In this document: in pieces, positions 2,957 through 64,000 of the stretch
How positions within the stretch are numbered: position 1 is the stretch's first letter
How the letters are laid out: each line of letters begins with the position of its first letter
Source: a bacterium
Lineage (GTDB): Bacteria; Patescibacteriota; Minisyncoccia; Sungbacterales; SURF-37
Length of the DNA stretch: 64,000 bases
Direction: 5' to 3'
Assembly: GCA_030648055.1 (NCBI GenBank)
Contig: JAUSHI010000002.1
Location: 178 to 64,177 of the forward strand
The notes under the pieces: model-generated
Databases searched by the model: none
Told to the model about the DNA's origin: nothing
What the model saw: the letters and a program-made list of their open reading frames with translations, nothing else
Program-made: the position numbers and the translations under genes

Positions 2957-5900
2957 ATGAAGTTTTTTATTATAGTTTTAGCTGCAATTTTCTTGTTTTT
3001 ACCTTTTGGGGTATTTGCCTTATGTAGCTCCGACGGTTATACAATTGTATATATTAACGGCATTCGTACAAAGAGTATAGACGATGCAAACACCGACCTC
3101 AATGAGTTGCAAAGAAAATTTATAAAATATTCGTATTTAAATGGAGTCGTATTTCATACTGGTTACAATCCTTCGCACCTTGCCGGCGCGGGTGATCTAA
3201 TTGAGTCGGCATCTCAATTATTTGATTCTTCCGTAAGCGATTATGACTTCAAAAATATTCTTCTTCAGATATATCCGGAAGTGACGACACGGAAAATTCT
3301 TCTCGTGGGGCATTCGCAAGGAACTTTCTATGCTAATAAAATCCACGATTACCTTCTCGCGAACGGCGAAGAGAAAGGGGCGGTTGGTATATATAATGTT
3401 GCGACGCCAGATAGTTCTGTTGCGGGTTATGAAAATGTTCCAAGTCAAGGGGCATATCTTACTTCTCAAAACGATAAAGTTATCAATGCCGTGCGCGCAG
3501 TAGCTTTAAAAGTCGGAGCTAAGCAGCCACTTCCGGCGAACATTGATATCGCGCTTACTCCGCAGGAGGCTGCCGACCCTAATGGTGGCCATTCTTTTAG
3601 CGGTGTATATCTCTCTAACGCTCCGGTTCGCATGGTTTCTGAGATGGAAGACGCGCTTAACAAACTTAACGTATCGGAAGCTCAAGACATACAAGATGGC
3701 GTCGGTTGTTTTATTCCACCGCCGAAAAATTTTTCTTATCGTGTGCAACAAGGACTTTTTGCCGTTGCCGATCCTATGGCGAGCGGCGCAGTTTCTGCTT
3801 ATAATGCAGAGCAGGCCATGGGAACTGCTTTGGGTAACGCGCTTGCGGGCGCCGCGAAAGAAATAAAAAATACAGCAATGGTCCTTTTGGCGTTTAGACA
3901 AAACGCGCCGCAAGCCCCACAAACCGTTTTGCCAACAAGTTTGTCTCAAGTTATTTCAACGCCAGCTCCAAAGACTTCGCAAAAGGCAAACACCAACGAA
4001 ACCCAAATATTAGCGTCAGCGGAATCAATTACGGATAATGTCGGCGGTGCGTCAGATACGGTTTTTGAAAATAATGTTCCGGCGTTAACCCCTGATCCCG
4101 AAATCGCGAATAATCCATCACCGTCGGGTGGTGGTTCTTCCGGCGGTTTTCTTGGCAGTATTTCCGCTCCGGGAGCTGGGGCCGCGCCAGATCCGGTTAA
4201 TAGTTCTGTTTCAATTCAAGAAACATCCACTTCAACTCCGCCATCTCCACCGCCCCCTCCGCCTGCGGATACGGCCGCTCCGGATATTGCTTTTTCAATC
4301 AGTGAATGCGATTCGTCGCTTTCCAGCGATATATGTTTTTTAACTAATCCGGCACTGCATTTGTCGTGGTCGTCAAGCGCAAGTGATACAGATCACTTTG
4401 AAATTGTTTGTGAAGTAAACAGCTCGCCATGCGCGGGTCTTTCTTTTGCTCCGACCAGTGCTACATCAACAGAATATAGCGTGCCAACCGAAAAACAGAC
4501 ATACATTTTCAAAGCAAAAGCGGTTGATGTTACGGGTAATGCGAGTGTGGAAGTTATTCAGACAGTATCTTTCGCCGCAACGCCTGTTGTTATCAACGAA
4601 GTTGCTTGGATGGGAACCGGTTCTAGCGCGACCACAAACAAAGATGAATGGATTGAATTGTATAATTCCACTGATTACTCCGTAAATCTTTCCGGATTTT
4701 CAATTTTATTTTTAGCACCAGGAACAACAACTCCAGCGCAAACTATTTTGCTTACCAATACAATTCCCTCAAAAGGATTTTATTTGATTGAGCGCACAAA
4801 CGATACGGCGGTGTCGGATGTTGCCGCCGATCTTGTTTTTTCATTTGGCGCGAGTGGGCTTTTAAATAGCGGCATGATTTTGCGTCTTGAAAGAGGCGGG
4901 GCGATTATTGACCGTACGCCTGATCTCTGTAGTTCAGCATGGTGCGCCGGTTCATCATCAACATATCAGACAATGGAGCGGATTGGCCCCTTGGCGTCAG
5001 GTGATGGCGCGTCAAACTGGGGAACAGCTCTTAGTGAGTTTATTTTGAATGGCAAGAATGCCGACGGGCAAAATATTAAAGGTACGCCCAAAAAACGAAA
5101 CAGTAAAAATTATTTAATTAGTCAGACCGGCACGATTGTTCAAAATAAAACGCTTACAAAAGCCGATTCGCCGTATATTATTTTACAATCTGGCTTGACC
5201 GTACAATCGGGTGTTACGCTCACGATTGATCCTGGCGTGGTTATGAAATTTGTTGTGCCGAATGAGCCGGCATTAACAGTTAACGGCGCTATTAAATCAA
5301 ATGGAACCGCCGCGGAGCCGGTGGTGTTTACTACTTTTGCCGACGATATATACGGCGGCGATATGAATGCGGACGGTGTGTGTGATTTGGGGAACGCGTC
5401 TTCAACTGCTTCTTGTCCGGCAGTGGGAAGCTGGAAACAGATATTTATCAGCGCATTGAGCGTTGGTTCGGAGTTTCATAATACTATTGTTCGCTATGGC
5501 GGGAAGTGGTTTTCCAATATGACATTTCGCGGCATGGTGGATGTTGATTCAACGCCGGTGGTATTTGACGCGGCAACTTTTGAATACGCGGAACAATACG
5601 GGTTGCAGTTGAGCGCTTCCGACTCTCAGATACAGAACAGCGTTTTTCGTAACAATAATAAGTACAGTGATTCTATTGGGCTTTATGCTGTTGGCGGTTC
5701 GCCGGTTATTTCTCAAAATACTTTCCAGCAGAATAGAACCGGCCTTCAGCTTGTGGGCTCTTTGGCGACAGTAGGCGGCAATACTTTTACTGATAATAGT
5801 TCTTATGCTGTTTATTCATCGGGATTGGCCGGCATGTTTACACAAAACTCCGGTTCGGGTAACGGAAAAAATGGTATTTTGCTTTTTGGCCAGATTGTTG

Positions 5901-9995: not shown

Positions 9996-10436
9996 TTAAG
10001 GGTTTACGCTCGGGCACATGTTTGACGAAGGAAGCACTTTTGAAATTATTTTATCGGCCGTGTTTTTCAAAAATCCTTCATCGGCGTTATGGCTTTTCAG
10101 CTCTTCTAAAAGATCGGTTGTCTCTGCCGTAAGTTCAAGCGGGGTTTTTGTTCCGGCCTTATTTTGTTCTGGTGTTTTATTTTTTTGCCGGCCGTCTTCC
10201 AGTTCGTTTTGAAGAGCACCGAGGGATTCTTCTATTTTTTCAATAAGTTCAAGGCGTGTTTCCGCTGTATTTTTTCCGCCGAATAACGTTTTTGTGACCG
10301 CACCGGTAATACGGTCTTTAATTGAGCCGTCCGCTACGGCTAAGTTTTGCATATTTTTTGCCAAATCTCCCGGCAGGTTGGTAAACGCGAATGCCAGGAA
10401 AATAAGCACGATAATTGCGGCAAAAAAAGCTTTCAT
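9996..10436 (-). CDS. secreted hypothetical protein
   Basis: 146 aa with a signal peptide MKAFFAAIIVLIFLAFAF, then a charged helical region. Confidence 0.6.
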   Translation of the reverse strand: MKAFFAAIIVLIFLAFAFTNLPGDLAKNMQNLAVADGSIKDRITGAVTKTLFGGKNTAETRLELIEKIEESLGALQNELEDGRQKNKTPEQNKAGTKTPLELTAETTDLLEELKSHNADEGFLKNTADKIISKVLPSSNMCPSVNP

Positions 10437-11369: not shown

Positions 11370-13513
11370 TGCGGACGGTGGTTGAAAAGGGCAGGCCGAA
11401 AAAACGATGGCATGATGATATTGACCCGCATACTAAAAAAAGCATTTTCGCAGTGTTGTTTTTCGTGCTGACCGGAATCACGCTTCTTGCTTATTGGGGG
11501 AGAGCTGGAGTTTTGGGTGTATATCTGTTTGACATCCTTGATTATCTTATAGGCCGGGCTTATTTTTTGGCCCCCATAACTTTTCTTTTGATAGCGTTTT
11601 CGCTTATTTTTTCTTTTCAGAGAAAATTTTTTGCGGCAACTTTTATTGGTGGGGCCATTTTTTTAGTTTCGTCTCTTGCGCTGATTGATCTTCTGTTGAA
11701 GAACCATACTGCTGGAGCCGTGGGTTATTTTACGAATTTGCCTCTTTTTAAAATTTTTGATTTCTGGGCAAGCATGGTTATTGAAGCCGGTCTTTTGGTT
11801 GTCGGATTTTTAATTACTTTAAACATCCCGCTTTTCAAGAAAAGTGCGAGCGAGGAAGCTAAGGATATTGAAACAAGGGGGGTTGTAAAAGAGGCGGCAG
11901 AGGGATTGAAAGATTTTGCCAGTCAGATGAAAAATGTTGCAACGGAAATGAAAGAAGGCCTTGCCGGCGGAAAAGGAGAGGGCGGCAATGTTGCGGCCAC
12001 AAGTGCTGTTACGGTGGATGCCGGACGCAAGGCGCCAAAATCGGAAGAGCAGGAGACGGAGTTTAAACAGAAAAAAATTAAATCCAATTATAAAAAGCCG
12101 CCGCTTGATCTTTTGAGTGACGACCGCGGAACGCCTTCTTCCGGCGACATTCGCGCCAACGCTAACATCATCAGGCGCACTCTTCAAAATTTCGGCATTG
12201 ATGTTGAGATGGGCGAAGTATCGGTCGGGCCGACAGTTACTCAATATACACTGAAGCCAGCCGAGGGCGTGAAGCTCTCTAGGATTGAGGCCTTACATAA
12301 AGATTTGTCTTTAGCGCTCGCCGCGCATCCCATAAGAATTGAAGCGCCGATTCCGGGTAAGTCGCTTGTTGGGATTGAAATACCGAATCGGTCTATTGCT
12401 CTTGTCGGGCTTAGGAGCTTATTTGAAAATTCTATTTATCAAGAATCTGAGGCCGCCCTTCTTTTTGCTTTGGGACGCGATGTCGCGGGGGCTCCGGTTT
12501 ACGCGAATCTTGCCAAGATGCCGCATCTTCTTGTGGCCGGCTCAACCGGTTCCGGAAAATCGGTTTCAATTCACTCTATCATGATTTCTTTTCTCTATCG
12601 GAATTCTCCGGAGATGCTTAAATTTTTGGTCATAGATCCCAAGCGGGTTGAACTCGCGTCCTATTCTGGAATTCCCCATCTTTTAACCGCGCCCATCACC
12701 GATTATAAAAAAGCTATTGCCGCGCTTCGTTGGGCGGTAAGAGAAATGGAACACCGCTATGAAATTTTAGCCGGCGTTGGCGCAAGAGACCTTGTCGGCT
12801 ACAACAATATTATTTCCGGTAAAAAATCCGGAGAAGAAGAGCTGATGCCTTATATTGTTATCGTCATTGATGAGCTGGCTGATTTAATGGTTTCTTTCCC
12901 GAGAGAGGTGGAGGGCTCAATTATACGTCTTGCGCAAATGGCCAGAGCCGTCGGCATTCATCTTATTGTGTCAACGCAAAGACCGTCGGTTGAGGTTATT
13001 ACCGGACTCATTAAGGCAAACATTACTTCGCGCATTGCTTTTCAGGTTGCCTCACAAGTTGATTCGCGCACTATTCTTGATATGGGGGGCGCGGAAAAAC
13101 TTCTTGGGAATGGCGACATGCTTTTTTTGGCGGGGGATACGGCCAAGCCGCGGAGAATCCAGGGGGCTTTTGTTTCGGAAGGAGAGGTGAAAAAAGCAGT
13201 GGAATTTTTGAAAGAGCAAATGGAGGAAGAAGCGTCTTCGGGGGAAGAGATTTTTGCAAATGAACGCGCGAGCGAGTTTGATTCTGACGGAATTGGCGGA
13301 GACGGCGATGACCCTCTTTATGAGGAGGCGCGTGAACTTATAATTGAAGCTGGCAAGGCATCGGCCTCATATCTTCAGCGGAGATTGAAAGTAGGATACG
13401 CTAGGGCCGCGCGGCTTCTGGATATGCTTGAAGAGCAGGGCGTTATCGGGCCGGGTGAGGGTGCAAAACCCAGAGAGATTTTAATAGGAAAAGAGAATCA
13501 AGATTCTATTTAA
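11345..13513 (+). CDS. ftsK: DNA translocase FtsK/SpoIIIE
   Basis: N-terminal TM helices. Walker A LVAGSTGSGKSV, IVIVIDELADLM, and a C-terminal gamma winged helix ASASYLQRRLKVGYARAARLLDMLEEQGVIG. Confidence 0.9.
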   Translation: MAKRKEKIVRTVVEKGRPKKRWHDDIDPHTKKSIFAVLFFVLTGITLLAYWGRAGVLGVYLFDILDYLIGRAYFLAPITFLLIAFSLIFSFQRKFFAATFIGGAIFLVSSLALIDLLLKNHTAGAVGYFTNLPLFKIFDFWASMVIEAGLLVVGFLITLNIPLFKKSASEEAKDIETRGVVKEAAEGLKDFASQMKNVATEMKEGLAGGKGEGGNVAATSAVTVDAGRKAPKSEEQETEFKQKKIKSNYKKPPLDLLSDDRGTPSSGDIRANANIIRRTLQNFGIDVEMGEVSVGPTVTQYTLKPAEGVKLSRIEALHKDLSLALAAHPIRIEAPIPGKSLVGIEIPNRSIALVGLRSLFENSIYQESEAALLFALGRDVAGAPVYANLAKMPHLLVAGSTGSGKSVSIHSIMISFLYRNSPEMLKFLVIDPKRVELASYSGIPHLLTAPITDYKKAIAALRWAVREMEHRYEILAGVGARDLVGYNNIISGKKSGEEELMPYIVIVIDELADLMVSFPREVEGSIIRLAQMARAVGIHLIVSTQRPSVEVITGLIKANITSRIAFQVASQVDSRTILDMGGAEKLLGNGDMLFLAGDTAKPRRIQGAFVSEGEVKKAVEFLKEQMEEEASSGEEIFANERASEFDSDGIGGDGDDPLYEEARELIIEAGKASASYLQRRLKVGYARAARLLDMLEEQGVIGPGEGAKPREILIGKENQDSI

Positions 13514-14086: not shown

Positions 14087-15304
14087 TTATTCATATCTTA
14101 GTGCCTCAATCGGATTTAGTGATGCTGCACGGCGGGCCGGATAGTAGCCGAAGACAATTCCAATTGCGGCCGAGACGCCGAAAGCAAGAAGAATTGAAGA
14201 GATTGAAATGTTGGTTGCAATGCCGGCAAAACTGGAAACTGCGAAGGAAATTGTCCATCCGAGTATAACGCCGATAACACCCCCAAGAAAGGTGAGCATC
14301 ACTGCCTCCGAAAGAAACTGCAAAGAAATATCTTTTTTCTTGGCACCAATGGCCTTACGAAGACCAATCTCGCGCGTGCGCTCGGTGACAGTGGTGAGCA
14401 TCATATTCATAATTCCGATGCCGCCTACTATAAGTGAGATGCTGGCGACAGCAGCAAGAAAAATGGTGAAAGTATTTGTGACCTGCGTGAGCGTTCCGAT
14501 AATATCCGCTTGCGAGAGAATGGAAAAATCTGGGTTTTGCGGATCAACGCGATGTTTGGCGGCAAGTGCTGCGGTTGCGTCATTCTGCACTTGTGGCATA
14601 AGGTTTTTGTCTTCTACGTTTATGGCAATTGTTGAAAGAAAATCCGCGCCGGCAAGAATTTTTTGCATTGTAGTGAGCGGCACAAAAACCGTATCGTCAG
14701 GATTGAAAAATCCGGCGCTTCCTTTAGACGCAAGCACGCCAATAACTTTGAAATTTATTTTGTTAATGCGAATGGTTTTGCCTATTGAGTCTGAATCTGA
14801 GAAAAGATCGGTGGCGACTGTGGGCCCCAATACCGCCACTCGGCCCATACTGCGCAATTGGTTTTCCGCGATAAACGACCCCTGATCAACAGAAACATTT
14901 CTTACTAAAGGATACTCCGCGGTCACTCCGATAATGGTTGAGTTAGTGTTATTGCCGCCCGTAGAAGTTATCTGAAAACGCCGTTGAAGTTCCGGCGAAA
15001 TATAAGCCACGCCGGTAATCTGTTTTAAGACATCTAGATCTTCATTTTTAAGAGTTTGCGCCGCGCCACGACCGGAAGAAACAATGCCACGACCGGGTTG
15101 GATGACGCCGGGCAGTACAGTGAGAAGGTTTGAGCCAAGCCCTTCAATGCTTGATTGAATTTGCCCACTGGCGCCCTGGCCTATGGAAACCATAGCAATA
15201 ACCGATCCGATACCGATAACAATACCAAGCATCGTAAGGCCAGACCTGACCTTATTTGTCGAAAGTGCAGTATATGTTTCTTGAAATAAGTCTGAAATTA
15301 TCAT
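14087..15304 (-). CDS. ABC transporter permease, MacB/FtsX type
   Basis: 405 aa with the MacB periplasmic-domain layout and a C-terminal FtsX motif RTREIGLRKAIGAKKKDI. Confidence 0.85.
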   Translation of the reverse strand: MIISDLFQETYTALSTNKVRSGLTMLGIVIGIGSVIAMVSIGQGASGQIQSSIEGLGSNLLTVLPGVIQPGRGIVSSGRGAAQTLKNEDLDVLKQITGVAYISPELQRRFQITSTGGNNTNSTIIGVTAEYPLVRNVSVDQGSFIAENQLRSMGRVAVLGPTVATDLFSDSDSIGKTIRINKINFKVIGVLASKGSAGFFNPDDTVFVPLTTMQKILAGADFLSTIAINVEDKNLMPQVQNDATAALAAKHRVDPQNPDFSILSQADIIGTLTQVTNTFTIFLAAVASISLIVGGIGIMNMMLTTVTERTREIGLRKAIGAKKKDISLQFLSEAVMLTFLGGVIGVILGWTISFAVSSFAGIATNISISSILLAFGVSAAIGIVFGYYPARRAASLNPIEALRYE

Positions 15305-15325
15305 GTCGTTTTGTGGTTATTAACA

Positions 15326-16057
15326 TTATTCAGTATTAAGCCTGAACTTATCGAATGGCTTAATAACGCGACGATGGTGATTTGTATTATCGGTTACAAT
15401 TTCGCCATCTTTTATATGAATAATGCGCTCCGCATGTTCTGCGACATACTGCTCATGGGTAATGAGAATGATAGTTCGTCCTTGATTAGAGTGAAGTTCT
15501 TGGAAAGTGCCGAGCACCATTTCGCCAGTTTTGGTATCAAGATTACCAGTTGGTTCATCGGCCAAAATTAATGTGGGATTGTTGACAAGCGCGCGGGCAA
15601 TGGCAACCCTTTGCATCATTCCTCCGGAAAGCTGATTGGAATAATGATTCCAAAATTGCTCCGGGAATGCGGAGGCGATAAGCGCTTCTGTTGTTCGCTT
15701 TTCGCGCTCTCCTTTTTTTACTCCAGCATACACGAGCGGCAAACCTACATTGCGAAGCACTGTTGCCCGCGGCAGAAGATTATATGATTGGAATACAAAA
15801 CCTATTTTTTTCATGCGGATACTAGCCAGTTCATCATCGGAAAATGTTGAAACATCGTGTTCGTCAAGAAGATATTGACCGGAAGTTGGCGTATCAAGAC
15901 AACCCAAAATGTGCATAAGCGTTGATTTGCCGGAACCGGAAGGACCCATAATAGCCACGAATTCTCCGTTATTGATTTTAAATGAAATGTTTCTAAGTGC
16001 TTTTGTTTCAATACCGGCATTCTGATATATTTTGGCTATGTTTTTACATTCAATCAT
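15326..16057 (-). CDS. ABC transporter ATP-binding protein (MacB-type ATPase)
   Basis: Walker [10 protein letters not shown], signature [15 protein letters not shown], Walker [12 protein letters not shown]. The start is uncertain: ATG at 16057 or GTG at 16081. Confidence 0.9.
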
Positions 16058-61200: not shown

Positions 61201-61228
61201 AAATATAAAAAGTGTCACAGAAAATAAG
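61201..61228 (+). repeat. direct repeat, left copy, flanking the CPBP gene
   Basis: AAATATAAAAAGTGTCACAGAAAATAAG versus 61591-61618 AAATATAAAAAGTGTCATAGGTAATAAG (25/28). Confidence 0.8.
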
Positions 61229-61229
61229 T

Positions 61230-61571
61230 ATGAAAATCATTGAAAAATGGCAAGGAGTTACTGTTAAAATAGAACCTTGGTGGACGTTGATAGGTGCGCC
61301 AGTTATACAAGAATTTATATTTAGGTTTTTGCCATTTCAGCTTTACCTTGTCTATGGAAGGTTCTACGAAATAGGTATTCTAAGCTCGCTACTATTTGTT
61401 ACAATCCACTGGTATTTCAACAAATGGTTCGTATTGTACTCATTTCTGTGGGGATTAATTCTATGGGTGGTAATGGCGAATTATGGATTCATGGCGGTTG
61501 TAGTTCTTCACGGATTATTGAATGTTATACATTTATGGTTAGGAATACTACCAAACAGAAGAAAAAGCTAA
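61230..61571 (+). CDS. CPBP-family (CAAX/Abi-like) intramembrane protease homologue, short
   Basis: QEFIFRFLPF (EExxxR-like) and HGLLNVIH motifs with 4 TM helices. Confidence 0.55.
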   Translation: MKIIEKWQGVTVKIEPWWTLIGAPVIQEFIFRFLPFQLYLVYGRFYEIGILSSLLFVTIHWYFNKWFVLYSFLWGLILWVVMANYGFMAVVVLHGLLNVIHLWLGILPNRRKS

Positions 61572-61752: not shown

Positions 61753-61780
61753 CAACTTGAACAACTTGAAATCAACTTGA
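61753..61780 (+). promoter_or_regulatory. three phased direct repeats CAACTTGA upstream of the AAA+ gene
   Basis: CAACTTGA at 61753, 61762 and 61773. An extended -10 TGCTACAAT (61804-12) lies 6 nt before the ATG at 61819. Confidence 0.55.
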
Positions 61781-61818
61781 TGTTTGCTTTTTATCAATAT
61801 TCATGCTACAATTAAAGC

Positions 61819-63495
61819 ATGATGTCCCCAGAAAAAATGCCACATACTCCAGAAGTAAAAACCACGCCAGAGCGTGTTCTTGAAGAGGCGGGTCAGGAAG
61901 CAGAGGCATCTAAAGAAAGGCTCTCGCCGGAGGAAATAGAGGTACGGGTAACAGAATTGGCTGATCTTTCAGCTGCCCGTCCCGAGGTCTCCAAGCATGT
62001 ACGAGAGACCTGGGGAGGACTCACCAAAAAAGAACGAGAAGAATTGAAAGCCAAAGGAGAAGAGGCTGTTATCGCACACCTCGAATCTCTCAAGATCGAC
62101 CCGGAACTCCGCGAATTTGAAGAATCGACTCTCGCCGAGACAGACGGGCGCATAAAAGAACTCGCCTCGCACCCGGACGTACTTGCTGCCTATAAAGACC
62201 GCTTCGAAACTCTAAAGGGAACTCTCGCCAAAGTTCTTGCTTTTGACCATCTGCAAAAAGAACTGCACGCCGCAGAAAACACCGAGCAAAAACTGCGGCT
62301 TTTTTATGAACAATACGGTCGCAGCCCTGGCCCGATTGAGCGCAAAAAATTGGAAGGGCTTGCCAATCGAGTAACTGAACTCAAAGGAGAACTACAAGGG
62401 TTTGAACTTGATGAAGCTACGTATAGATATGCTGGCCGGAGAGAAATCAGAGGCATGCAGCGAGACCTTGCGCGTTACAGCTTCGCTGAAACAGAATCAC
62501 GCACCGAACTCATTCGCGAAGTTCTGCCAGACCTTATGCAGGGCGCGCCAGTTCTTTTTCAGGGAGAAACCGGTTCGGGCAAGACACAGCTTGCAAAATA
62601 TATTTCTCAAAAATACCTCGGCAAAGAGCCGGCTGTCATTTCGGTAAGCGAGCAGATTAAAGAATCCCAAATTCTGGGAACGCGAGGACTTGAGGCCGGC
62701 GAGACAATTTTCAAATATTCCGAATTCGTAAAAGCGCAAAAGGAAGGCCGGCCGGTAATTCTCGATGAAGTGAACTTAATGCCCCACGAATTTGCGGGGA
62801 TTCTTCATGACTTCTTGCAAAAACGCGTGGGCGATGTCTGGATTCATCCAGTCACCGGAGAGCAAATCACTATCACCGCGCCGATTATGGCGACGGCTAA
62901 CCTCAAATCAGAACGATATAAACAACGTTACGAGCTCGATGTCGCCACCCTTCGCCGTTTCATCGGTGGAGCGGGTGCTCGAGAAATTCATTACCTTGAT
63001 ATCAATAAGAAAGATAATGGCGGCGGCTATATTGCTCCAGAGACATTGAAAATTTTGGGATCGGTGCTTGCCGATCGTCACGGAAATATTGAGTGGGGTG
63101 AGGCGGAGGCGCCCAAAAAAATGGAGGAGTTAAAAAGATTTGTGTCCGCCTGCCGAAAGATTCAGGAAGATTTCACGCTTTCCATCCGCGAAGGAGGCGA
63201 AGAATCGCTTGCGAAAACCGACCGACTCGCGTTTCGGGAGTTAGTCATCACTCTCAAAGACCAAATAGAGATCATGAAGGCCTGGAAAGCCGGGGGGTTC
63301 AAGGAGCCACTGCAACAGATTATTCTCCGCGAGTTTTTCCACAAAGCGGAGATCAGCGGCCGTGCCGCAAAAGACCGAGAAAACATGGCACGGGTGTTTA
63401 TCGCCAACAAATTCTTCAAGGACACTAAGCCGGAAGATTTCAAAATACAAGGCCTTGCCGCTCAATCTCTTCGTCAGTGGCAGGGCAAAGAATAA
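61819..63495 (+). CDS. AAA+ ATPase (AAA_5/MoxR/dynein-related type) with long coiled N-terminal region
   Basis: Walker A GETGSGKTQLA, Walker B PVILDEVNL, sensor IMATANL, and an Arg in ATLRRF. The N-terminal 230 aa are E/K-rich and helical. Confidence 0.8.
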   Translation: MMSPEKMPHTPEVKTTPERVLEEAGQEAEASKERLSPEEIEVRVTELADLSAARPEVSKHVRETWGGLTKKEREELKAKGEEAVIAHLESLKIDPELREFEESTLAETDGRIKELASHPDVLAAYKDRFETLKGTLAKVLAFDHLQKELHAAENTEQKLRLFYEQYGRSPGPIERKKLEGLANRVTELKGELQGFELDEATYRYAGRREIRGMQRDLARYSFAETESRTELIREVLPDLMQGAPVLFQGETGSGKTQLAKYISQKYLGKEPAVISVSEQIKESQILGTRGLEAGETIFKYSEFVKAQKEGRPVILDEVNLMPHEFAGILHDFLQKRVGDVWIHPVTGEQITITAPIMATANLKSERYKQRYELDVATLRRFIGGAGAREIHYLDINKKDNGGGYIAPETLKILGSVLADRHGNIEWGEAEAPKKMEELKRFVSACRKIQEDFTLSIREGGEESLAKTDRLAFRELVITLKDQIEIMKAWKAGGFKEPLQQIILREFFHKAEISGRAAKDRENMARVFIANKFFKDTKPEDFKIQGLAAQSLRQWQGKE

Positions 63496-63601
63496 TACCA
63501 TGCCATTCGAAGTTTACCCCGTGAAATAATTTTGTTTCACAAAATTAGCGCAAAGCGCTATTTCACGGGGCAGGCAAACTTTATCGAATAAATTAAACAA
63601 T

Positions 63602-64000
63602 ATGCCATTCCCAGCTTACGAACTATATCGTCCATACGAAGACCCAGACAAATACAAAACCTCCACCCAAAAGAAAGCGGAGGGTGTATTGAAAGAGGCC
63701 GATGAAATGAAGCGGGCTCAAGGCAAAGAAACGATCTCTGGCGTCGAGTTTCAAGAAGCCAGAGAGCTTTTAGGCGAAGACCTCATCGGACCGGAAGAGA
63801 TTGAAAAAACCTGGGGTGTGCGGCCGGAGGACGTCCCGGAGATTCCGTTTTCCCGTGAAGAACTCGAGCGAGCAAAAGAAATGGGACAAATGTTAGTTCT
63901 TCGAGTCGATAAAACAGAAGATGGCAAACCGATGTCGATGGAGGCGATGAACACTATTCTGGCAAAGCGCTGGGAGAAAGAGAAAAAAGGCGGGCTACTC
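63602..64000 (+). CDS. hypothetical protein, 5' part (runs off the right edge), not in the ORF track
   Basis: The ATG at 63602 opens a frame for 133 codons to the window end (MPFPAYELYRPYEDPDKYK...). It is co-oriented with the AAA+ gene. Confidence 0.55.
   Translation, partial: MPFPAYELYRPYEDPDKYKTSTQKKAEGVLKEADEMKRAQGKETISGVEFQEARELLGEDLIGPEEIEKTWGVRPEDVPEIPFSREELERAKEMGQMLVLRVDKTEDGKPMSMEAMNTILAKRWEKEKKGGLL

Follow-up and report, generated by a model that had tools for sequence, protein, structure and literature searches.

The right end of the 64,000-nucleotide stretch of bacterial DNA analyzed here (contig JAUSHI010000002.1 of a Sungbacterales genome; hereafter the window) carries a gene for an AAA+ ATPase of 558 amino acids (aa) (61819..63495, + strand), followed by the first 133 codons of a second gene (63602..64000, + strand) whose product begins MPFPAYELY. 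We conclude that the ATPase is probably the AAA+ motor of a Patescibacteria-specific operon in which companion proteins, here termed variable proteins (VPs), are rewritten by a neighboring diversity-generating retroelement (DGR). In an initial annotation of this DNA, the partner of the ATPase was described as unknown. That description can now be replaced: genes of ~280 aa at the loci of relatives are paralogous to one another and to the window partner, and template/variable repeats in relatives identify the VP family as DGR targets, of which the window VP is a member by homology.

The partner gene is unfinished at the window edge, and the source contig (64,437 bp) stops approximately 437 bp further on, inside the VP gene. 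A database protein identical to the window VP (P0096) is 219 aa long and is annotated ‘partial’. Exact look-ups of the window ATPase and of P0096 returned no record that extends the contig. Because the contig stops within this gene, the right flank had to be taken from relatives. The closest relative with a right flank is L013, an Azambacteria metagenome-assembled genome (MAG), whose ATPase and VP are each 88% identical to those of the window; the VPs of L012 and L001 match the window fragment with 79% and 73% identity, respectively. In relatives represented by long contigs, the gene order is AAA_5 ATPase, a VP of ~280 aa, a VWA protein of ~670 aa, and then one or two more VPs of ~280 aa. This cassette was found in L001, L004-L008, L016-L019, L022, L024 and L029. 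Of the 11 non-redundant loci with at least 3.5 kb of downstream sequence, 10 carry the VWA gene (the window contig ends too early to show it), and a reverse transcriptase (RT) or Avd gene was detected by tblastn in 12 of 19 non-redundant loci. The earlier expectation that the system may continue beyond the window is therefore borne out in relatives, in which the VWA gene, more VP paralogs and DGR parts follow.

The initial annotation had named loss of conservation of the neighboring partner as grounds for refuting its proposal; by that test the proposal stands, since relatives keep the two genes side by side. The VP adjoins the ATPase in 17 of 18 non-redundant loci and lies 284 nucleotides (nt) away in the 18th, and the pairing is kept at 28% ATPase identity in L152, where profile comparison (97.4%, E 9e-12) identifies the next gene, which begins 3 nt further on, as a VP whose product ends in VGFRL. 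This adjacency, together with weak P-loop matches in PADLOC, might be taken to favor the original view of a self-contained two-gene defense or remodeling pair with no tie to a retroelement. We consider such a pair very improbable, since the VWA gene and further VP paralogs follow in 10 of 11 loci, since the partner bears DGR variable regions in relatives, and since the PADLOC matches are limited to the Walker A region of the ATPase, with none for the VP or VWA proteins. The suggestion of a defense system likewise gained nothing from PADLOC beyond these weak matches.

Contigs that bear the ATPase often end less than ~100 nt past it or within the next VP (L002, L003, L010, L011, L014, L015, L026, L028 and the window contig), a pattern that fits assembly breaks at repeated, hypervariable paralogs. 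For genome annotation, the cassette accounts for the frequent contig breaks at this position in these organisms.

The evidence that VPs are diversified comes from self-comparison of the loci of relatives, which revealed a template repeat of 111-128 bp near Avd and RT that matches two to three variable regions at the 3' ends of VP genes. Such template/variable pairs are present in seven relatives (L004, L005, L008, L013, L016, L018 and L022), and the variable region corresponds to the last ~40 VP codons. The mismatches between template and variable copies fall predominantly at template adenines: 11/11, 12/12 and 17/18 for the three pairs of L005, 14/15, 11/12 and 11/12 for those of L004, and 15/21 for L013. 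Adenine shares in L008, L018, L022 and L016 are similar to those of L004 and L005, with most pairs ranging from 7/9 to 12/12, when two L016 template/variable pairs are excluded from the counts. The templates of relatives are rich in AAC codons, and both RVT_1 and bAvd domains were found in L004, L005 and L008.

In L013, the variable region comprises VP residues 278-317 of 318, the template repeat begins ~380 nt downstream, and bAvd (1e-15) is encoded after the template repeat on the opposite strand. This cassette looks to be decaying: there is no intact RT next to the L013 Avd, 6 of the 21 mismatches lie away from template adenines, and the ATPase gene has an in-frame TGA at codon 63 (10187-10189) where relatives have an Arg codon (CGA). 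The same locus contains a second DGR-like pair (3228-3350 and 3743-3865), in which the 3743-3865 copy carries the adenine at 16 of 20 mismatches, as well as an RT fragment at 4108-4512, ~6 kb upstream of the ATPase.

The window ATPase is recognizable from its open reading frame (ORF), its match to Pfam AAA_5, its conservation over the whole length, and its profile and Foldseek matches. The AAA_5 core spans aa 244-381 (62548-62961, + strand; E 7e-17, 62.1 bits versus a cut-off of 22) and includes the Walker A motif GETGSGKT (62563-62586, +) and the Walker B motif ILDEVN (62758-62775, +). In an AlphaFold model (pLDDT 82, pTM 0.71), this alpha/beta AAA+ core is preceded by a family-specific helical N-terminal domain (aa 1-240; 61819-62538, +), in which aa 16-240 form long helices, and is followed by a helical lid/C-terminal domain (aa 400-558, +). 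The initial annotation had proposed an AAA_5-type ATPase with a long helical N-terminus; the Pfam match and the predicted structure agree with it. Ninety-five database homologs align over the full length with 48-96% identity, and every named one is from Patescibacteria. Conservation extends throughout the protein, including the N-terminal 230 residues; Walker A, Walker B, N361 and R379/R380 are invariant, as are GETGSGK and DE across 23 ATPase sequences. The N-terminal domain matches no Pfam or NCBIfam family. An exhaustive profile search of 1.8 billion representatives yielded two tight clusters of full-length relatives, surrounded by a shell of proteins of 500-900 aa that share the three-part architecture, whereas giant Midasin-like proteins align to the ATPase profile in their AAA modules alone.

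In Foldseek searches, the best match to the AAA+ module is NorQ (9qh4_A; E 2.9e-10, TM 0.75 on the target), followed by CbbQ2 (6l1q; TM 0.73) and then Rea1/Midasin, and the sequence profile matches Midasin (6e-23) and NorQ (5e-8). On the strength of sequence and model, we place the ATPase in the NorQ/CbbQ/Midasin class, the AAA_5 branch of the MoxR class. MoxR-class AAA_5 members work with a partner that carries a VWA/MIDAS domain, and these relatives indeed encode a VWA protein. The possibility therefore has to be weighed that the ATPase is a housekeeping chaperone of the MoxR/NorQ/CbbQ type for metalloenzyme maturation, a grouping that the initial annotation had said would count against its own proposal. 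The grouping is real at the level of structure, and the family has its own VWA partner. However, the protein is no ortholog of NorQ or CbbQ, given 12-17% identity, an extra N-terminal domain of 240 aa, and a mobile context that varies between loci and is linked to a DGR and a recombinase; moreover, no conserved gene for a client enzyme is found nearby. We therefore judge a housekeeping role to be extremely improbable.

The VP family comprises proteins of ~270-320 aa, with two to three paralogs per locus and at least 215 database members, and has no match in Pfam or NCBIfam. In a model of the L013 VP (P0127; pLDDT 84, pTM 0.80), a disordered N-terminus precedes a mixed alpha/beta body, and the variable region falls on three terminal strands. 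Foldseek returned nothing significant for this model, and nearly all of the top 50 matches are FGE-type C-type-lectin (CLec) folds; these weak matches include FGE, EgtB, SenA, PvdO and CarF, plus the DGR proteins Mtd and TvpA. A viral fold library gave no match.

The third component, the VWA protein, is composed of an N-terminal domain, a Lys/Glu/Gly-rich linker, and a C-terminal VWA domain (Pfam VWA, 1e-8) with a complete MIDAS motif (DxSGS...T...D) that is invariant as DLSGS...T...D. Its N-terminal ~220 residues are near-invariant among orthologs of 64-68% overall identity (L001 12688-14724, aa 50-260; L004 15256-17274) and carry THELMAHYGE and NIFEDVLGNRRI motifs. No Pfam, NCBIfam or PDB profile matches this region, which may represent a new domain and could possibly bind metal. 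The invariant HELMAH motif led us to consider a metalloprotease, and nothing was found in support of that assignment. The ATPase, VP and VWA proteins are all acidic, and none has a hydrophobic segment or signal peptide; the system is predicted to be cytoplasmic.

These features suggest a scheme for how the cassette might operate. The small, acidic, cytoplasmic VPs would have their C-terminal ~40 residues rewritten by adenine-specific mutagenesis by the neighboring DGR (RT, Avd and template repeat). By analogy with NorQ-NorD and CbbQ-CbbO, an ATPase hexamer would dock on the VWA protein and ATP hydrolysis would remodel the complex, with the hypervariable VPs acting as interchangeable ligand-binding modules. 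The result would be an ATP-driven machine whose specificity is reprogrammable by the DGR, for example one that senses or captures foreign or host molecules inside the cell. Its function could be defense, as proposed for DGR-linked MoxR/vWA systems (PMC7159879; PMC10907252), or it could lie in the host interactions of episymbionts or in mobile-element biology.

Several considerations weigh against this assignment, and they concern both the window locus and the scheme as a whole. No RT, Avd, template repeat or VWA gene lies within the 64-kb window, and the window VP is cut before the expected variable region, and thus the DGR link for this locus rests on homology. Furthermore, L001 has no DGR and L006 and L024 have only remnants, and so a DGR may be absent at the window locus as well. 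The CLec fold of the VP is weakly supported (best Foldseek E 0.18), and the interaction of the components, the ATPase activity and the biological role are all argued by analogy. Finally, the cassette showed neither an effector domain nor a VMAP-like component, and PADLOC gave nothing beyond the weak P-loop matches of the ATPase. Pfam, NCBIfam and PADLOC searches detected no peptidase, TIR, cyclase or adaptor domain in the cassette proteins, and no VMAP was seen with these general profiles, which a very divergent VMAP might escape.

The first two of these points lead to an alternative in which the DGR has been lost at the window locus, leaving the ATPase and VP as a non-diversifying remnant or as genes on the way to becoming pseudogenes. 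There are precedents among relatives. L001 is devoid of a DGR for 10 kb upstream and 4 kb downstream, and its two VPs are 99.9% identical; RT remnants only are seen in L006/L007/L020 and in L024; and L013 combines the in-frame stop in its ATPase with the six mismatches that fall off template adenines. The 5' end of the window VP, too, has been rearranged and carries an inserted element, as discussed below. Set against these observations, the window ATPase ORF is intact with all of its catalytic motifs, L013 retains a template repeat and Avd, and a contig break within the VP is expected from repeated hypervariable paralogs. We regard loss as possible but doubtful, and we predict from the relatives that the DGR of the window locus lies just past the contig end, or else was lost as in some of them. 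The two L001 VP copies, which flank the VWA gene (11703-12657 and 14724-15678), differ by a single mismatch over 955 bp with no DGR visible, which suggests that the copies were recently duplicated or homogenized by gene conversion, or that the assembly may have collapsed.

The genomic settings of the cassette raise a further possibility that is compatible with the operon of DGR-rewritten VPs proposed here. An integrative mobile element or prophage may carry the cassette as cargo, with the VPs binding a receptor or host and the AAA+/VWA pair serving as their assembly chaperone. Large serine recombinases reside beside the cassette in eight loci (L004 20750-, L005 15544-16884, L016 5537-6844, L017, L018, L021, L022 and L028), and the neighborhoods differ from locus to locus (ribosomal genes, CorA/CysS, MurG and, in the window, MraY). 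Moreover, methyltransferases, an ImmA/HTH pair and a dUTPase are encoded near the L005 cassette, one copy occurs in IMG/VR (L031), and a PHROG match is to phage CobS-like AAA proteins. Despite these associations, the 10-kb flanks contain no phage structural genes, the cassette occurs in just 1 of 2.9 million viral contigs, which duplicates the MAG locus L022, and the VPs lack a signal peptide or membrane anchor and match nothing in the viral fold library. A role as cargo of this type is therefore unlikely in our estimation. Because serine recombinases adjoin the cassette in eight loci and because its genomic neighborhoods differ, the data do suggest that the whole unit of DGR, AAA, VWA and VP genes moves as an island. 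Insertion sequence (IS) elements encoding a Y1 transposase or rve integrase occur in and around cassettes (L004 2399-4592 and 7921-8963; L008 12907-13335 and 14943-15986), and IS insertions cut VP genes in L008 and part RT fragments.

We are more hesitant about a bolder formulation, which we offer only tentatively: that the cassette is a self-contained module mobilized by recombinases, in which a NorQ-like ring, a VWA adaptor and cytoplasmic specificity subunits reprogrammed by the DGR would together recognize targets at the expense of ATP, and directed hypermutation would drive the evolution of what is recognized. If this were true, a purpose would be found for the many DGR targets in the candidate phyla radiation (CPR) that are domain-less and non-membrane, and the MoxR/vWA conflict-system idea would reach unicellular episymbionts without a classical effector. 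The window locus is an ordinary member of its family, and it is the family that provides a handle on the role of CPR DGR targets: because one whole family of such targets shares its loci with genes for a NorQ-class AAA+ motor and a VWA/MIDAS adaptor, the hypothesis that VPs are clients or specificity subunits of an ATP-driven intracellular remodeling machine becomes testable. The family also links CPR elements to the DGR-coupled MoxR/vWA systems known from multicellular bacteria.

A sequence check recovered every feature listed in the initial annotation at its listed position, including those that surround the ATPase gene. The promoter (61784..61812, + strand), recognized as conserved sequence, consists of a -35-like TTGCTT (61784-61789), a 17-nt spacer and an extended -10 element TGcTACAAT (61804-61812). 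The latter ends 6 nt before the ATG at 61819, and the predicted transcription start is at or adjacent to the start codon. The -35-like TTGCTT with its 17-nt gap to the -10 box is seen in the window clade. More broadly, a -10 box with at least 5 of 6 positions matched stops 6-10 nt short of the ATG in 15 of 18 non-redundant ATPase loci; in eight of these loci a TG lies upstream of the box, and none has a Shine-Dalgarno (SD) sequence. As a control, 4 of 30 other window genes pass the same -10 test. These findings make the leaderless transcript suggested in the initial annotation plausible, and the comparative data support leaderless ATPase mRNA as a conserved family trait. A generic promoter scan of the window omitted the ATPase promoter because its -35 element matches at only 3 of 6 positions. 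SD-like sequences occur within 18 nt of the listed (uncurated) start in just 4 of 30 window ORFs of at least 190 aa, and SD sites seem to be used sparingly in this genome.

Immediately upstream of this promoter are the three phased repeats noticed previously, which are copies of CAACTTGA that start at 61753, 61762 and 61773 (61753..61780, +) and share the near-palindromic core TCAA-C-TTGA. Their enrichment exceeds chance expectation: the window contains six copies versus 1.68 expected, none of 100 shuffles reached six, and three of the copies lie inside 28 nt. The CAACTTGA repeats are common to the nearest relatives only. L010 has two copies at the same position, so the window gained one 9-nt unit, and L013 and L014 have one copy each in the form TCAAGTTGA, which overlaps their -35 element TTGATA. 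In the clade of L005, L016, L017, L022 and L024, four to five CTTGG/CTTGA motifs spaced 8-11 nt apart are found upstream of the ATPase. Over all loci, 34 CTTGR motifs were observed versus 8.4 expected, although the significance of this excess is overstated by the non-independence of clade members. It is plausible that the array is a binding site for a regulator.

The gene directly upstream of the cassette (61212-61571) encodes a small membrane protein of the Rce1-like CAAX protease family (Pfam 1.3e-8). Further upstream are genes for MraY and a D-Ala-D-Ala carboxypeptidase-like protein, and thus the cassette borders ordinary cell-envelope genes.

The junction between the ATPase and VP genes in the window differs from that in relatives. 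In relatives, the VP begins 5-29 nt past the ATPase stop codon, whereas the window VP starts at 63602 and is preceded by a short ORF encoding MPFEVYPVK (63500..63529, +). As the initial annotation recorded, this mini-ORF repeats the first three codons of the next gene (ATGCCATTC, shared by the starts at 63500 and 63602). Comparison with L010 reveals how this arrangement may have arisen: the L010 VP gene opens with 13 nt that are found unchanged at 63500-63512, and its codons 7-10 match 63575-63585, within a second relic piece, CAAACTTTATCGAATA (63575-63590, +). A hairpin element separates the two pieces, and the new VP start yields a somewhat different N-terminal sequence. Because its pieces match the 5' end of the L010 VP on either side of the hairpin, the mini-ORF is, by sequence comparison, a relic of the earlier 5' end of the VP gene that was interrupted by the hairpin element, and not a leader peptide. 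A recombination or insertion event would have left both the relic and the palindrome.

The hairpin element (63517..63570) has a 12-bp closing stem, formed by the arms CCCCGTGAAATA (63517-63528) and TATTTCACGGGG (63559-63570), around two small hairpins (ATTTTGTttcACAAAAT and GCGCaaaGCGC). Its RNA is predicted to fold at -31.5 kcal/mol (z = -4.6). The stem described in the initial annotation is present; however, the alternative pairing with GTTTCAC that had been proposed for it is absent from the minimum-energy fold, which is a three-way junction instead. The element is missing from all 31 ATPase loci examined and occurs as a single copy in the 64-kb window. In contrast, arms with these exact 12-nt sequences, enclosing loops of 20-40 nt, are found in at least 123 copies on at least 120 metagenome contigs (L032-L151) with GC contents from 0.30 to 0.64 (for example, L120 1361-1416, L084 1409-1464, L063 491-553 and L055 1061-1120). 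These copies are intergenic and lie beside unrelated genes. Loops on GC-rich contigs mostly measure 35 nt, lack structure and are mutually related, and some units are in tandem. On AT-rich contigs, two small hairpins form in approximately 8 of the 28 distinct loops, which produces a three-way junction like that of the window with quite different sequences; in some AT-rich copies the inner hairpins are parted by TA, and loops are wholly different between subfamilies. Rfam has no family for this element (none at the gathering threshold; best E 0.58, miRNA noise). These sequences identify the hairpin as one copy of a widespread, dispersed palindromic element, inserted at the window locus.

Several other identities for the hairpin were considered and rejected. 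It is not a locus-specific switch, being a dispersed element that is missing from all orthologous loci. Nor is it an intrinsic terminator, which would require a T-run that does not follow it. An IS200/IS605 or TnpB end was dismissed when the neighboring ORFs of 400-420 aa proved to encode pilin/3D-domain and AAA_14-DUF4143 proteins, with other neighbors being unrelated enzymes. Lastly, the arms are not halves of CRISPR repeats: the loops are homologous across contigs, loops of tandem units are nearly the same, and flanking sequences frequently complement each other instead of being identical.

The literature that could be searched, which does not include Paul et al. (2017) on CPR DGRs, yielded no account of such an operon. 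Three sets of known systems are informative for comparison. First, NorQ-NorD is a MoxR AAA+ protein with a VWA adaptor whose mechanism has been described (PMC13036017; see also PMC9976466; PDB 9qh4, 9qh6, 6l1q). The cassette resembles NorQ-NorD and CbbQ-CbbO in the fold of its AAA+ module (TM 0.73-0.75 on the target) and in having a partner with a long linker and a C-terminal VWA/MIDAS domain. In contrast, identity is 12-17% and NorQ and CbbQ lack the N-terminal domain of 240 aa. In addition, the clients of NorQ and CbbQ are defined enzymes (cNOR, Rubisco), whereas by analogy the likely clients or adaptors of the cassette would be hypervariable proteins.

Second, DGRs are unusually common in the CPR, where their targets are reported to have neither recognizable domains nor membrane anchors and a role that is open (Roux et al., 2021; PMC8144416). 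One CPR DGR target class, UVR4, matches the Midasin AAA domain (Wu et al., 2018; PMC5758913), and Dore et al. (PMC10907252) cite Paul et al. (2017) for CLec domains fused to an AAA ATPase. The cassette shares with CPR DGRs its Patescibacteria hosts, several targets per DGR, domain-less non-membrane targets and AAC-rich templates. It departs from the reported CPR DGR targets in that its Midasin-like ATPase is a separate, non-diversified gene and in that the VWA gene is a constant third component.

Third, cyanobacteria and gammaproteobacteria have vWA-MoxR ‘ternary’ conflict systems that are associated with DGRs (Kaur et al., 2020, PMC7159879; Dore et al., 2024, PMC10907252). Like these, the cassette combines a MoxR-class ATPase, a vWA protein and a C-terminal binding domain diversified by a DGR, its targets lie directly beside the ATPase, and transposons decay parts of the locus. 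In ternary systems, however, the vWA protein usually bears the variable CLec domain as a fusion, and there are VMAP, adaptor and effector domains as well (PMC7159879; PMC10907252), whereas the cassette places its variable domain on two to three separate small VP paralogs that flank the vWA gene and has no detected VMAP, adaptor or effector domain (peptidase, TIR). Its ATPase is also distinct, being AAA_5/NorQ-like with a unique helical N-terminal domain, and the N-terminus of its VWA protein is family-specific too. Finally, its hosts are Patescibacteria, which the published surveys either omitted or reported without an association to conflict domains (PMC7159879; PMC10907252). Taken together, these comparisons indicate that the cassette is a stripped-down, effector-free variant, residing in Patescibacteria, of the known DGR-linked MoxR/vWA systems.

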